Notes: generated by a model from the letters alone, not told the origin. A stretch of 64,000 nt of DNA from Flavobacteriales bacterium (GCA_040377305.1 JBEIPA010000018.1:1-64000); one strand, 5' to 3'; positions 7,784 through 19,430 are shown, numbered from the stretch's first letter. Made by a program: numbers and translations.

Positions 7784-9127
7784 ATGCACGATTATAAGAG
7801 TACATCGGGAAATGAGTATAAACAGAATAAGCAGCCGTGGGAAGGTGATGTTCAGCTAAACGAGGAACAGCCCGAGCACCCAAGGGTGGCGCAGAATTTA
7901 TACAAATTGCTGGACTACTCTGTTTATATCAATGAGCCTCCGACCAAAACAATTCCTTCTCTCATAAAAGGTCAGGTAATAGTTGAGGAAGATCCTTGGG
8001 CAATGCCCTCAATTGGTCAAACCGGGTCTAAAGAAAGTACGGACGATATTGTAGACATCAGCTTTTACCGCACCGGCTACTATAAGGGTAAGCAGAGAGA
8101 CGGAGAACTTATTGGCACCATTCATATTCCTGTAAACGTAAATGGGGTCACCTTCGACATAAATTCATTGGTCAAGCAGATTGCTGCAATGAATTTCGGA
8201 GATATGGAACTGCTGACGCTTTACAATGGGCTAATAAATATTCCAGAACTAGTGCCCATCGTAAGTTCACTCAACATGTACGCTCTTAAGGGTCTCGTGG
8301 ATGATGCAAAAAAGAATGATCCGCAGAACGAGAGTATTGGCGATATCATGAAGGAGGCGGATGCAGGATTTGAGGATATTCTGACTCTGAAACCTGAGAA
8401 CAAATCGTTTATTACTTCGGCGAGCAGTAAAGCAGGAGAAAGCCATAGAAAATATCTTTTGGGTCCCGCACCATTGATCTATCAGATGGCCAGAGCAAGT
8501 TGGAGTGGAATTCTCAAGGACGATCCGGCATTCAAATCTTATTATGATACTGTGCATCAGGCCGAGGTTGGGAAAACAGCTGACGATATATTAGAGAAAA
8601 CATTCGACCAGACAATGGAGAAGAAAGCCTGGCCGGTTTTTAGTGCGCTAACTGTTGTATCTCAGGGAGCATTTGAAGCTGGTTGGGGTGAAGGATTGAA
8701 AAGCCTGAATAAGCGGATACAATTAAATAACTACCATGGCCACATGGCGGGTGGAGAAATGAAGAAGTATTCAAGCTTCGGATATAATCAGCTTTTTCAC
8801 TACCTGATGCTTTATCAACGCTTTCCTGATGCGATCGGAATGTATGAGTCAGGAAAATTTACGGGGGATAAATTGGAACAGGTCCTGAAGTCAGGCGCTC
8901 ACAAAAAAGATCGTAAATCCGGTGAGTACAGTTATGATACCAGCCGTTCCGACTATGGAACTTTTATTACAGATAGTATGAATCCGCTAGTACTGAAAGT
9001 ATGGAAAGCTGTGCTCAAGGAAGAAATTGCTTGTGCGACTTCCTTGCTGGGCAGCAAGCCGTCATTGCAGTCGCGTATTGCCAAACTTCAGTGGATTCTT
9101 GATGAGATCAATACTTTGAAATTATAA
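7784..9127 (+). CDS. Putative eCIS cargo with divergent GH73/FlgJ-like glucosaminidase C-terminal domain
   Basis: SQGAFEAGWG (cf. AQAxLESGWG), NNYHGH (cf. NNLFGI), KKYSS and YSYDTSRSDY (cf. YATDPxY). N-terminal leader shared with 19430-17985. Confidence 0.65.
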   Translation: MHDYKSTSGNEYKQNKQPWEGDVQLNEEQPEHPRVAQNLYKLLDYSVYINEPPTKTIPSLIKGQVIVEEDPWAMPSIGQTGSKESTDDIVDISFYRTGYYKGKQRDGELIGTIHIPVNVNGVTFDINSLVKQIAAMNFGDMELLTLYNGLINIPELVPIVSSLNMYALKGLVDDAKKNDPQNESIGDIMKEADAGFEDILTLKPENKSFITSASSKAGESHRKYLLGPAPLIYQMARASWSGILKDDPAFKSYYDTVHQAEVGKTADDILEKTFDQTMEKKAWPVFSALTVVSQGAFEAGWGEGLKSLNKRIQLNNYHGHMAGGEMKKYSSFGYNQLFHYLMLYQRFPDAIGMYESGKFTGDKLEQVLKSGAHKKDRKSGEYSYDTSRSDYGTFITDSMNPLVLKVWKAVLKEEIACATSLLGSKPSLQSRIAKLQWILDEINTLKL

Positions 9128-9248
9128 ATGTCCAACATGTTTCAGAATAATATCCGTAACAGCAATTGGAACTTCACCTTTCCCGAAAACGAAACTTCCG
9201 GAAATATTGAAAATACCGCCATCCTTGAGATTAACTTACCCCAGCGAT

Positions 9249-10673
9249 ATGCCACAACCTCTCATTTCCCCGGAGAATTACTTCTCCGAAGACCCACTTT
9301 ATTACAGCGATGGTTTCCTGAATCCGGAAGGTTTCATGCAAAACAACCAACTGCTCGAAGAACATTTTCGTGTACTTGATTCTTTGTTCGCAATGCGGAG
9401 CGGACCCGATCAAGGTGCATTACTCAGCGCAGATGTTGCAGAACGATTGCTTCCAACTGAAGCAACATGGAAAGATGCACCGTTCACACGTGTTGCAAAT
9501 CGCATTGAGCTCACAACTGCCGAACGCATTTTGTTGCTGCTCATTCTCGAAGCGCATTATCGCCCGGTGGCAATGACGAGAAGAATTACTTCTCTGCTCG
9601 CGACGAATAAAAATCTGGTGATCGATTTCGGATACTTCAAAGACCCATTCTCAGCTGGCTATTATCCTACAATCAAAACGGTTCTGTTCCTGCTCGCCGG
9701 AAACGACATTGCTCATTGGAGAAAACTCGAACAGGAGATTCTGTATCACGGGCGATTACTGAAAGAACAGATTGTGATATTCCGCGATCCGGATGAGCGC
9801 GCACTCATGGGCAACCGCATGAATCACATCCTCAGCATAGAACCGGAGTATGTAGATTATCTTCTGCACGGCAGAAAACCCCGTCCCGATTTCGGACGTT
9901 CGTTTCCAGCAAAATGGGTGAGCACGAATCTGAATTGGGATAATCTTGTACTCAACCCACGTACGATGTCGGAGATTCACGACGTTATGGATTGGGTCGC
10001 GCACGGAGAAGATGTCATCAGCCGTTCTGAACAACAAGTGAATCAAAGTTTCCCGTGTTTGTTTTATGGTCCGCCCGGAACGGGAAAGTCGCTTACGGCA
10101 AAACTCATCGGTAAGCACTACGGCAAAGATGTTTTTCGTGTCGATCTCTCCATGATTGTCTCCAAATACATCGGGGAAACAGAAAAAAACCTTGCTCAGT
10201 TATTCGATCGCGCTGAAGGAAAAGATTGGATACTATTTTTCGATGAAGCAGATTCTTTATTCGGAAAACGTACAGGCATCAGCGATTCAAAAGATAAGTG
10301 GGCTAATCTTGAAATGTCATACCTGCTTCAGCGGATGGAAGAACACCAGGGATTGTGCATACTTGCCACGAACCTGAAAAATAATCTCGATGCGGCGATG
10401 AGCCGACGTGTACAGGCTTCCATCTATTTCCCGTGGCCGAAAGAAGAAGAACGCAGTTTGATCTGGCAGAAGAGTGTACCTCCCGGATTTGAATACGCAA
10501 ATAATGTTTCGTTTGAAAAGCTCGGCAAATTTGATCTCAGTGGAGCGGGAATCGCAAACGTCATTAAGGCCAGTTGTGTGAAAGCAGCAAAGCGAGGCGA
10601 TTACATTTTGCATAGCAAAGACATTGCACGCTTTATCCGCATTGAGTACGCGAAAGACAGTCGCACGCCTTAA
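9249..10673 (+). CDS. AAA+ ATPase, Afp15/Pvc15 family (copy 1)
   Basis: Walker A GPPGTGKS, RVDLSMIVSKYIGETEKNL, Walker B ILFFDEADSLFGKRT, WANLEMSYLLQRME. Start uncertain (TTG 9207 or ATG 9249). Confidence 0.9.
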   Translation: MPQPLISPENYFSEDPLYYSDGFLNPEGFMQNNQLLEEHFRVLDSLFAMRSGPDQGALLSADVAERLLPTEATWKDAPFTRVANRIELTTAERILLLLILEAHYRPVAMTRRITSLLATNKNLVIDFGYFKDPFSAGYYPTIKTVLFLLAGNDIAHWRKLEQEILYHGRLLKEQIVIFRDPDERALMGNRMNHILSIEPEYVDYLLHGRKPRPDFGRSFPAKWVSTNLNWDNLVLNPRTMSEIHDVMDWVAHGEDVISRSEQQVNQSFPCLFYGPPGTGKSLTAKLIGKHYGKDVFRVDLSMIVSKYIGETEKNLAQLFDRAEGKDWILFFDEADSLFGKRTGISDSKDKWANLEMSYLLQRMEEHQGLCILATNLKNNLDAAMSRRVQASIYFPWPKEEERSLIWQKSVPPGFEYANNVSFEKLGKFDLSGAGIANVIKASCVKAAKRGDYILHSKDIARFIRIEYAKDSRTP

Positions 10674-17978: not shown

Positions 17979-17984
17979 CGTCGT

Positions 17985-19430
17985 TTATTTCGTTCCGTCC
18001 ATATCCTTAATTACGGCCTCATTTATAGTTCCTGGTTGAACAAGAACCAGTCCCTTCGCAGTGTTCATCGCCTCCTGATAAGTGGTGAGCAATGCTTTAA
18101 ATTCCGGATTAACCTCACTTGGGTAATTAACTTCTTGGAGATTCATAAATTGAGTTACAGCATCCGGTATCTTATCTTTTTCCTGCGGTTGCAAAGCGAG
18201 AATATTTTCTTTCATGGTTGCAGTCATCATCTTTGCGTCAGCCTTTCCTAAACCTGGAATATTTTGAAGCTTTGGTACAACCTTCGTTGATATTTTAGGT
18301 GCAGTTTCAGACGCCGCAGGTGTTTTGGCTTTATAGGAAGCTTCATAATGATCCCGGATGATCTGCGCTACTCCATCGGGGTCAACTGGCGCCATTTCTC
18401 CCAATTCTGATGTGCCTTTCACCGAATTACCGTAACTCAATGTATTCATTGCGTGTTGATAAGCCGCGTAATAATTGTCTTGTACAGATTCCTTTGCTCT
18501 CTGTGATGCATCATCCACCTGCAAAGTGTCCCACAAAAGATAGTCTAATTTACGAAGCTCGCCGACAACTTCTACAGCATATGTTGCTATCGCACTTCCA
18601 AAAACATAAGTAAAATAATTAACTCCAGGTTGTCCGGGAGCAGATGCATCAAAATATCGTTGAGGCCACACATCCAGAAAGTGTCCACTTACCAAATGAC
18701 CCCACACTCTGGCTTCAGTATGATTAGTCGCTGCAAGCTGATCGCGAACTTGAGCTGCAACCGACAATTCTCCCCCTTCCGTTTTGTTATACCAACTGTA
18801 ATCCTCTCCAGGATTTGTGCCAGTGCCACACGCGTACATTATGACATTCACGTCATTTGTCAGATATGGAGAAATGGCGGGAATAAATGTGGGGACATCA
18901 TTTGTATCCATGTTTCCACCCCATCCATAACAGCTTCCATGCGACGCCAATGCAAGTGTTTTAATTTTAGGCGCTTCAACATTTTTTACATATGCGGGGT
19001 CATTTAAACTTCTTGCTATCTCCGCTTTATCAACTGAAGACTTAAGAATTGCTGCAAAGTTCGGGATAACTTCGTCCATACGGATAGTCCGAGCATTGTT
19101 CCCTGTGCCTTCCTCCATTTGATGTGGGATCGCATGCCCTACTTTGATTTGGTCAACCGCAATAGTCTTGTCAAGTATACCAACCGCCTTATGTTGCTGT
19201 GCCCACAAAAGGGATGCAGGTTTAAATTCTGCTTTGTCATTATCGAGATAAACAATTACCGGAATTCCATCCGGATAATCATTCAGCAACATTTCGCCAA
19301 GATCAATCTCAGGATCACCTGCGCTACTAAATTCGCTTTCATTTCCCTTATCAGCTACTGTCAAATCTTCATCCCACGGTTGATGAGATGCTTGAAACTG
19401 ATTATTGGATTGTCTGGTTTGTTTGTACAT
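17985..19430 (-). CDS. Putative eCIS cargo with DUF4347-like (caspase-hemoglobinase fold) His-Cys domain
   Basis: IKTLALASHG ... VNVIMYACGTG dyad pattern; leader MYKQTRQSNNQFQASHQPWDED shared with 7784-9127. Confidence 0.65.
   Translation of the reverse strand: MYKQTRQSNNQFQASHQPWDEDLTVADKGNESEFSSAGDPEIDLGEMLLNDYPDGIPVIVYLDNDKAEFKPASLLWAQQHKAVGILDKTIAVDQIKVGHAIPHQMEEGTGNNARTIRMDEVIPNFAAILKSSVDKAEIARSLNDPAYVKNVEAPKIKTLALASHGSCYGWGGNMDTNDVPTFIPAISPYLTNDVNVIMYACGTGTNPGEDYSWYNKTEGGELSVAAQVRDQLAATNHTEARVWGHLVSGHFLDVWPQRYFDASAPGQPGVNYFTYVFGSAIATYAVEVVGELRKLDYLLWDTLQVDDASQRAKESVQDNYYAAYQHAMNTLSYGNSVKGTSELGEMAPVDPDGVAQIIRDHYEASYKAKTPAASETAPKISTKVVPKLQNIPGLGKADAKMMTATMKENILALQPQEKDKIPDAVTQFMNLQEVNYPSEVNPEFKALLTTYQEAMNTAKGLVLVQPGTINEAVIKDMDGTK

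Follow-up and report, generated by a model that had tools for sequence, protein, structure and literature searches.

In the AlgoCIS, PVC and Afp injection systems, an N-terminal sequence of the cargo and an ATPase are both reported to be required for loading. AlgoCIS of Algoriphagus machipongonensis is, like the locus described here, a Bacteroidota contractile injection system; the N-terminal region of its cargo is needed for loading and DUF4157 is dispensable, a single AAA+ protein (Alg15) is needed, and likeness between cargo pairs was reported inside a system and not between systems (10.64898/2026.05.27.728243). That its loading sequence is specific for its ATPase was put forward by these authors as a hypothesis only (10.64898/2026.05.27.728243), and the eCIS signals published so far lack a consensus. 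PVC signals are N-terminal, hydrophilic, 50-70 aa long, Pvc15-dependent and groupable by alignment (PMC9054023, PMC11495950); conserved residues are rare in them, and loading withstood each single substitution made in the Pnf signal (PMC9054023). The Afp18 signal is polar, and 20 of its residues suffice; a consensus was looked for and not found, and foreign signals were accepted (10.1101/2023.11.13.566157). Further traits ascribed to eCIS signals are an aromatic residue among the first 8 positions and a slightly positive charge over residues 6-21, the latter a statistical trend and no absolute rule (PMC11297309). PVC-type toxins with eCIS_core/DUF4157 combine a constant N-terminus with variable toxin domains and a CDC48-like ATPase (PMC3482391, PMC8213781, PMC11297309).

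Here we analyzed a locus on a stretch of 64,000 nucleotides (the window) from a Flavobacteriales bacterium, in which two unrelated proteins share a 23-residue N-terminal leader that we call the QPW leader. Judged by its genes, this is a complete contractile injection system of the Bacteroidota, and the first-pass annotation had already placed it among such systems: all eight types of the eCIS core set, as listed in PMC6899500, are present in the window and contig C5, including the tube (Afp1/5), sheath (Afp2/3/4), Afp7, VgrG (Afp8), gp25 (Afp9), baseplate J (Afp11) and Afp16. The window was joined to C5, which carries the tubes, Afp7, VgrG, gp25, baseplate J and the tape measure, through a split sheath gene and a 10-base end overlap. 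The features of the locus are as follows.

2..1105, minus strand: sheath protein 2, 5' part (remainder on contig C5)
1135..2829, minus strand: sheath protein 1
4139..4753, minus strand: Pvc16/Afp16 cap
5084..7150, minus strand: 688-aa first gene of the structural operon, no family match
7449..7757, plus strand: 102-aa conserved gene heading the plus-strand cassette, 42% to the syntenic G015 gene
7784..9127, plus strand: putative effector, 447 aa, with QPW leader; no PDB match
7784..7852, plus strand: QPW leader copy 1, 23 codons
9207..10673, plus strand: AAA ATPase 1, Afp15/Alg15-like
10685..11665, plus strand: putative effector, 326 aa, with a 55-residue hydrophilic leader without QPW
11679..16733, plus strand: polymorphic toxin-like protein, 1684 aa, Tox-PAAR-like domain
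16741..16980, plus strand: 79-aa ORF immediately following the 11679 toxin gene, putative immunity protein by position only
17304..17978, minus strand: lipoprotein-type signal protein behind 17985-19430, putative immunity protein
17985..19430, minus strand: putative effector, 481 aa, with QPW leader and predicted clan CD cysteine protease domain (from model and homologues)
19362..19430, minus strand: QPW leader copy 2, 23 codons
19468..20235, minus strand: putative immunity protein with a signal/lipobox-like start, encoded behind the calpain-like gene
20259..21236, minus strand: calpain-like (Peptidase_C2) putative effector
21270..21326, minus strand: 18-codon ORF holding P-Y-E-x-D, beginning 2 nt past the ATPase 2 stop
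21329..22744, minus strand: AAA ATPase 2, Afp15/Alg15-like
22741..24498, minus strand: caspase-domain protein, conserved flank, 96% to G015
24604..25602, minus strand: Amidase_2 + SH3 protein, conserved flank, 92% to G015

We take the 688-aa protein to be fibre-like. The Amidase_2 + SH3 protein may have a lysis or release role; the caspase and amidase flank genes are compatible with lysis, as would fit extracellular release as opposed to membrane anchoring (T6SS-iv/tCIS). The genome contains one sheath locus and four ATPases, putatively Afp15/Alg15-like, which fall into four clades of a quick tree. Four ATPase paralogues for one sheath locus contrast with the one ATPase and two DUF4157 cargos described for AlgoCIS, and the single syringe locus contrasts with the several PVCs, each of which possesses a separate structural operon (PMC9054023, PMC11495950). 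Both AAA genes of the locus have intact Walker A/B motifs, one set each, unlike the tandem AAA domains of Pvc15 (PMC11495950). This genome also differs from AlgoCIS by several leader classes per genome, by a 23-residue motif on DUF4157-free cargo and by putative lipoprotein immunity genes.

The N-termini of the 7784(+) and 19430(-) proteins align without gaps as M-[HY]-x5-S-x-N-[EQ]-[YF]-x4-Q-P-W-[ED]-x-D-[VL], as had been claimed, and the sequence comparisons indicate that this leader is real. A search of the genome's 29,830 open frames found the strict pattern at these two starts only. The pair scores 41 (BLOSUM62, ungapped, residues 2-24) with 7 identities in 23 residues, and the two proteins are reciprocal best matches among 4,152, the runners-up scoring 20 and 16. 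This score was reached by 1 of 100,000 composition-preserving shuffles and by 8 of 46,056 pairs of hydrophilic N-termini, the pair itself included; the other 7 are lysine-rich or paralogous in appearance. The bodies are unrelated, again as first described, their best pairwise match being the leader itself (E 0.028). The leader DNAs are identical at 39 of 72 positions (12, 16 and 11 by codon position), and a DNA repeat joining them was looked for and none was found, which together exclude a recent duplication of the leader. Independent contigs from two other studies carry the 19430 leader DNA whole and the 7784 leader DNA in parts, nearly unchanged.

Several properties of the two leaders agree with a loading sequence. 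They lie at the extreme N-terminus, within the range of about 20-70 aa, are very hydrophilic and lack a Sec signal; GRAVY over the first 35 residues is -1.97 and -1.55 for 7784 and 19430 (99.9th and 99.3rd proteome percentile for hydrophilicity). The length of the motif matches the 20 residues that suffice for Afp18, and an aromatic residue falls within the first 8 positions of both (Tyr4 and Tyr2). Net charge over residues 6-21 is 0 and -1 and hence not slightly positive. As for the acidic linkers that the first-pass annotation described for all three proteins (7784, 19430 and 10685), residues 20-45 hold 6, 9 and 6 D/E residues. The 10685 protein had been counted as a third bearer of the leader; this did not hold, because it scores only 2 and -2 against the other two, values that 4% and 8% of all pairs attain and that 1,988 and 4,676 of 20,000 shuffles equal. 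The short pattern M[HY]x5SxN turned up at 3 further, unrelated sites of the genome. The 10685 protein lies directly behind ATPase 1 yet fits no leader class; its domain, for which papain/CHAP-like is a weak lead, is also present behind an RHS core in P0124/P0125.

The proposal that the 7784 and 19430 proteins are cargo is consistent with their bodies, which look like swappable effector-type domains at the syringe locus. The 19430 body has a predicted caspase/CPD-like fold with a His-Gly...Cys dyad (model pLDDT 91.6), and His164 and Cys201 are invariant in 49 aligned rows; we predict a clan CD cysteine protease domain. The best fold match was Tce1 (Z 10.7, rmsd 2.9, 157 aligned, 12% identity), followed by other clan CD domains, and Foldseek gave no match to the model at E<=0.001. 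Tce1, from the Pseudomonas aeruginosa H3-T6SS (PDB 9qpe), has a clan CD-like His/Cys domain and is tube-lumen cargo; it is loaded folded through Hcp-ring binding and is reported to lack a nearby immunity gene (PMC13323088). In 75 of 118 BLAST matches homology to the 19430 body begins at residues 25-60, in 39 it begins later, and in 4 weak extensions earlier. As eCIS_core precedes the 19430-type domain in 27 of 57 homologues scanned, the QPW leader lies in the position of a loading sequence. The domain is one of the variable domains of PVC-type toxins, with the constant part reduced here to about 23 residues and eCIS_core absent; none was found in the four window effectors. The 7784 protein has one homologue, P0002 (40% over residues 152-445), with another N-terminus, and its predicted structure has a pLDDT of 31. 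No match to its body was found in Pfam, NCBIfam or PDB. GH73 glucosaminidases have a lysozyme-like fold with a catalytic Glu and E.GWG / NN.G motifs; the body may be glucosaminidase-like, as a stretch resembling these motifs is kept in P0002. PDB sequence searches with the window effectors returned nothing, Atlas searches gave leads all below 0.9, and a word-index search restricted to near lengths found no relative of 19430, one of 7784 and two of 10685. The 7784 and 10685 bodies are thus found elsewhere behind different N-termini, and QPW leaders, like loading sequences, precede exchangeable effector domains.

The first-pass annotation had regarded the motif as a broadly conserved eCIS signal. 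This was not borne out: allowing 1 mismatch, the pattern occurred in 0 of 34 family genomes, and a two-row leader profile gave a best E of 0.07 and no member there. The order-level search covered the same 35 genomes as the family search. The matches in two collections and 400 class genomes were of chance type: 9 exact matches among metagenomes and 3 in the genome collection, none of which opens an effector-like gene, and 3 two-mismatch matches in the class genomes, all in short frames or mid-frame. QPW[ED] was also absent from 120 homologues of the 19430 body. M[YH]...DxHR leaders of the upstream slot were considered as kin and rejected, as their profile ranks the QPW proteins 196 and 552. Since the exact motif is in no other genome searched, it is a private tag. 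Its absence from other eCIS-linked proteins, which the annotation had named as evidence against its proposal, is formally what the 34 family genomes gave; it leaves a putative loading role standing, since in this family each leader class belongs to an ATPase clade.

This specificity is seen in the related genomes, where the same 20 of 34 family genomes have the ATPase and eCIS_core. Effector leaders across the family form classes that follow the clade of the adjacent ATPase, the best match being of the same clade in 30 of 36 cases (expected 3.3). Among pairs with unrelated last 200 residues, a leader score of at least 40 was reached by 60 of 86 pairs with ATPases more than 55% identical versus 6 of 1,309 others. 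Of 66 same-genome pairs a single one reached it, and its ATPases are more than 80% identical. Physical linkage between an ATPase gene and the 5' end of the gene that follows, together with kinship of the genomes, accounts for much of this clade-tracking without recognition. For remote effectors, the leader class fits an ATPase clade of the own genome in 8 of 20 (expected 1.6), and a further 19 had no match; in G008 and G023, such effectors on contigs without an ATPase match bear the leader class of an ATPase that their genome owns. Nine of the misses fall in G013, a genome with 10 DDW-type leaders in which no ATPase of that clade was found (82% complete, 810 contigs); of the remaining misses, 2 are just below the cut-off and 1 was resolved. 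At the syntenic G015 locus the flanks are kept (96% and 92%), the ATPases are different (39-40%), and two other leader classes occur on 6 and 2 effectors. DDW leaders vary in the first 15 residues and have an invariant Trp core in 26 rows. Such classes are unlike the signals described for Afp18. In relatives of ATPase 1 the next gene bears a KEY...DDWY-type leader, which the 11679 leader resembles (rank 2 of 4,152 with the DDWY profile, E 1.6).

Which ATPase would read the QPW leader was approached through its core. P[WYF][ED]xD, with the aromatic position widened to Y/F post hoc after sight of the 18-codon ORF, is present within the first 30 residues of 2 of 4,152 proteins; of 4,142 upstream in-frame windows a single one has it, and this window immediately follows ATPase 2. 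P[WYF][ED] occurs in 2 of 124 leaders of relatives, both directly behind ATPase-2-clade genes. The 18-codon ORF is in frame with the calpain-like gene, at whose first ATG no hydrophilic leader was found, and is separated from it by two stops, which are covered only by the sequencing run that is the likely source of the assembly and not by independent contigs. It is possibly a decayed third leader; in overall likeness to the QPW leaders it ranks 199 of 4,142, and a profile of ATPase-2-neighbour leaders places the two QPW proteins just 39th and 114th. The ATPase at 21329(-) is favoured as the candidate reader, if weakly and post hoc.

We consider the QPW leader likely to be a loading tag, by analogy with the known systems. 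That it is read by one dedicated AAA ATPase, most probably ATPase 2 (21329-22744), has in our estimate about an even chance. This ATPase, and not its paralogues, would recognize the leader through the motif residues, unfold the predicted effectors 7784 and 19430 and pass them to the tube of the only syringe in the genome. The 11679 protein would use ATPase 1 and the QPW proteins ATPase 2, with 7784 served from the opposite cassette. The syringe would be a shared chassis, and ATPase-plus-leader sets exchangeable modules.

The tag could instead be read by ATPase 1, as a diverged leader of its superclade with a Trp near residue 20 in an acidic context. Trp19 is found in both QPW leaders and Trp at 19-22 in DDW.EVH and DDWY leaders, 7784 lies directly before ATPase 1, a slot filled in G015 by a DDW-leader effector, and 19430 comes out 1st or 3rd of 4,152 with a profile of DDW.EVH leaders, a class tied to that superclade, from which G000 sequences were left out. 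However, E is only 0.47-1 for that match, the family was picked after the Trp was noticed, and 7784 is just 90th or 188th. With the DDWY profile, which represents the clade of ATPase 1 itself, both QPW proteins are near 1,000th and 11679 is 2nd, and ATPase 1 shares only 40% identity with the DDW-linked ATPase. We regard this assignment as unlikely. It is also rather unlikely that the region works by generic hydrophilicity or disorder acceptable to any ATPase, its likeness being a relic of an old 5'-end duplication. The PVC signal tolerated every point mutation tested, with conserved residues rare (PMC9054023), Afp accepted signals of other species without a consensus (10.1101/2023.11.13.566157), polymorphic toxins retain 5' parts through recombination (PMC3482391), and 10685 has a hydrophilic leader without the motif; yet third codon positions of the pair are alike in just 11 of 24 whereas M, S, N, Q, P, W and D are kept, leader classes remain distinct inside one genome, and the Trp core of DDW leaders persists while their first 15 residues are free to vary.

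A non-loading purpose, with binding of the leader to the ATPase or some other chaperone serving to keep the toxin inactive, to stabilize it or to dock it in a syringe-independent conflict module, would suit the many ATPase-effector cassettes that lie at a distance from structural genes (in this genome, for instance, C1 and C10), the stabilization of cargo by Pvc15 via the signal (PMC11495950), and cargo of 1,500-2,400 aa, one with a PAAR-like domain suggestive of spike attachment. We hold it to be quite improbable, as the array that contains both leader proteins is joined to the structural operon, domains of the 19430 family frequently stand behind eCIS_core, the closest solved fold being tube-lumen T6SS cargo, Tce1 (PMC13323088), and loss of Alg15 leaves the AlgoCIS tube empty (10.64898/2026.05.27.728243). 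Chance likeness between two polar, low-complexity N-termini would account for the few identities, the pair BLAST E of 0.028 and a third intact copy being found nowhere. It would leave unexplained a reciprocal best match with a wide gap to the runners-up, reached by a single shuffle in 100,000, between starts at most 12 kb apart in one effector array, and is highly improbable.

N-terminal loading signals are already known, and we found no published case of several sequence-distinct ATPase-leader classes on one syringe. Taken by itself, the QPW motif, a private tag in two copies, is of modest value outside the class context. More tentatively, with the balance tilted against it, one syringe may be served by up to eight exchangeable loader ATPases, each with its own N-terminal address, of which QPW would be a minimal one acting in trans between cassettes. 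Because several leader classes occur within one genome, an ATPase-by-leader cross could point to the residues that are read; the many natural classes with invariant residues make specificity directly testable by a small cross. If the pairs were orthogonal, several cargos could be controlled separately in protein-delivery particles. If each loader has its own address, the family would hold a natural set of orthogonal loader-tag pairs, a code for the particle's choice of cargo.

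The window begins within a contractile injection system, with a Pvc16 cap gene and two sheath genes, the second of which runs on into contig C5, where tubes, Afp7, VgrG, gp25, baseplate J and a tape measure are encoded. The Pvc16, sheath, tube, Afp7, VgrG, gp25 and baseplate J types are core eCIS types in the available text of PMC6899500. One sheath locus was found in the genome, which is assigned to Bacteroidota because it encodes type IX secretion domains. Four related AAA ATPases, of four clades, are encoded in the window (two), on C1 and on C10; they are labeled Afp15/Alg15-like from domain and context. 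The stretch between the two window ATPases is occupied by effector cassettes that converge on each other and whose partner genes are small or lipoprotein-like. Features of the window include:

7784 (+), putative effector with the QPW leader
9207-10673 (+), ATPase 1
10685, putative effector
11679, putative effector of 1684 aa
16100-16733, domain at the C terminus of the 1684-aa protein, without a match in Pfam and PDB searches
16985-17290, a putative REP-like or terminator region of short, imperfect repeats lying between the two converging cassettes; other contigs of the same run have similar copies
19430 (-), putative effector with the QPW leader
21329-22744 (-), ATPase 2
26183-64000, ordinary Bacteroidota genes (HrpB, PorP, transporters, T9SS cargo with thermolysin and SprB repeats), unconnected with the leader finding

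A domain related to the C terminus of the 1684-aa protein forms a separate 313-aa ORF in the fetched locus L053 (34%). Two more ATPase-effector-immunity cassettes lie distant from the syringe genes (C10:53929-58509 and C1:9604-17388), and the C10 effector is the sole eCIS_core (DUF4157) protein of the genome. A lone third tube gene is found at C15:15125-15586, with other CIS genes absent in the 45 kb examined.

The leader common to the N-termini of 7784 and 19430 was confirmed as the first-pass annotation had written it. Of the 29,830 open frames in the 5.2-Mb genome, only these two have its strict pattern at their start. The two proteins score 41 (ungapped, residues 2-24) and are reciprocal best N-terminal matches among 4,152 proteins, with runners-up at 20 and 16. 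Scores of at least 41 were reached by 317 of 8.6 million protein pairs, among the matches listed mostly Sec signal peptides, by 8 of 46,056 pairs among 304 hydrophilic N-termini, and by 1 in 100,000 shuffles. The leader DNA is identical at 39 of 72 positions (11 of 24 third codon positions), no DNA repeat joining the two was found, and it is nearly unchanged in contigs of two other studies. The QPW leader is real, in two copies, and is likely a loading tag. The case is narrower than originally read: 10685, proposed as a third carrier, lacks the motif, with scores of 2 and -2, values attained by 10% and 23% of shuffles. Nor is the motif a general eCIS signal; it is private, since searches of 34 family genomes and 400 class genomes did not find it and metagenome and genome-collection scans gave only 12 chance-type matches.

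The QPW leader is one instance of a family-wide correspondence between ATPases and leaders. Afp15/Alg15-like ATPases occur in 20 of the 34 family genomes, one to eight apiece, and eCIS_core in the same 20. The fetched loci yielded 88 full-length ATPases, 61 with an adjacent downstream gene, 7 of which were dropped as short or signal-peptide-like; comparison was restricted to pairs with unrelated last 200 residues. Leader scores of at least 40 were found for 60 of 86 pairs with ATPases more than 55% identical versus 6 of 1,309 other pairs, and the best leader match in another genome had the same ATPase clade in 30 of 36 cases (3.3 expected), counts that are overstated because the rows are kin and ATPase and effector genes are linked. 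Within genomes, a single match was seen among 66 leader pairs, and the ATPases of that pair are near-identical. The unpublished genome G012 contributes rows to several ATPase, leader and eCIS_core counts, but no claim depends solely on it.

The correspondence was tested more stringently on 39 eCIS_core proteins without an ATPase in the fetched stretch. Twenty matched a leader class and 19 none; for 8 of the 20, against an expected 1.6, the genome that encodes the protein also has the matching ATPase clade, and these 8 include proteins of G008 and G023 on contigs without an ATPase match. Nine of the 12 misses are in G013, where no ATPase of the DDW clade was found and which is 82% complete; this genome stands as a counter-example to the pairing. 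For one miss, a partial ATPase located on its contig accounts for the result, and two lay at 59-60%, under the 62% cut-off. When G000, the genome of the window, was ranked with the relatives' leader profile for the clade of the neighboring ATPase, the C10 effector came 1st of 4,152 proteins (E 6e-9) and 11679 came 2nd (E 1.6). A locus of G015 (L057/L087, contig C6) has the same plan as the window, with caspase and amidase flanks 96% and 92% identical; its interior is different, with ATPases 39-40% identical to the window's and leaders of two other classes, one carried by 6 effectors and one by 2. Its first-slot effector combines leader, eCIS_core and Amidase_2.

Two divergent ATPases stand in tandem in L061 4906-7809 (G008) and L063 741-3649 (G001), each with a different leader, one with its effector upstream and the other downstream. 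Another class of leaders, M[YH]...DxHR (L039 12066, L041 5921, L042 11362, L197, L198, L205, L206), occurs in genomes with ATPase-1-clade genes, sometimes immediately upstream of the ATPase; this suggests that one ATPase clade may pair with two leader classes.

Most likely, the leader would be bound by the ATPase, which would unfold the cargo and thread the protein into the tube. In the available parts of these reports, AlgoCIS (10.64898/2026.05.27.728243) and PVC (PMC9054023, PMC11495950) need both the N-terminal region and the ATPase, and 20 residues are enough for Afp18 (10.1101/2023.11.13.566157); by analogy, these requirements may hold for the window proteins. From ATPase-leader co-occurrence, we infer paralogue-specific reading of leaders. 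A residue-level code is opposed by the PVC alanine scan (PMC9054023) and by the finding that Afp accepts foreign signals (10.1101/2023.11.13.566157), as far as the accessible text goes, by the neutral to negative charge of the QPW leaders (compare the eCIS signals in the accessible part of PMC11297309), and by the 10685 leader, which fits no class. The lipoprotein-like partner genes hint that the window effectors may have bacterial targets.

As the reader of the QPW leader, ATPase 2 is weakly favored. 19430 sits in its operon, and an 18-codon ORF directly behind ATPase 2, in frame with a calpain-like gene and cut off from it, holds P-Y-E-x-D. In a pattern widened post hoc, once this ORF was seen, P[WYF][ED]xD occurs at 2 of 4,152 gene starts (7784 and 19430) and in 1 of 4,142 upstream windows (the short ORF), although in overall leader likeness the ORF ranks 199th. 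P[WYF][ED] is found in 2 of 124 relatives' leaders (G023 and G021), both behind ATPase-2-clade genes. Reading by ATPase 1 is less favored: Trp19 of the QPW leaders fits the Trp-at-20 leaders of the ATPase-1 superclade, and the DDW.EVH profile puts 19430 1st or 3rd (E 0.47-1); 7784, however, comes only 90th or 188th.

Homologue architectures indicate that 7784, 19430 and 10685 each have a short hydrophilic start ahead of a domain that elsewhere stands behind another trafficking module. In two homologues, the 10685 body (residue 56 onward) stands behind an RHS core. The 7784 body, tentatively read as a possible glucosaminidase, has one homologue, with a different N-terminus. The 19430 body has 120 relatives (50% library), none with QPW[ED]; of 118 BLAST hits, 75 have homology that begins within residues 25-60, 39 begin further downstream and 4, which are weak extensions, begin nearer the N-terminus, and eCIS_core precedes the domain in 27 of 57 relatives scanned. 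The predicted structure (pLDDT 91.6) resembles a clan CD protease, and all 49 rows keep His164 and Cys201. Its best match is Tce1 (Z 10.7, rmsd 2.9, 157 aligned), a T6SS tube cargo in the available text of PMC13323088; Foldseek gave zero hits at E<=0.001. With the relatives (P0003-P0122), at least 120 clusters make up an unnamed family of clan CD-like domains, which occur in fusions with eCIS_core or subtilase domains and for which no covering Pfam model was found.

Publications already describe loading signals, the sorting of these signals into groups by alignment, and resemblance among the cargos of a single system, and ATPase specificity for the signal has been proposed in print as a hypothesis (10.64898/2026.05.27.728243, available text). 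In the literature searched, mostly outside subscription journals, we found no description of multiple ATPase paralogues with separate leader classes for one CIS. The family-wide ATPase-leader correspondence makes loading specificity directly testable.
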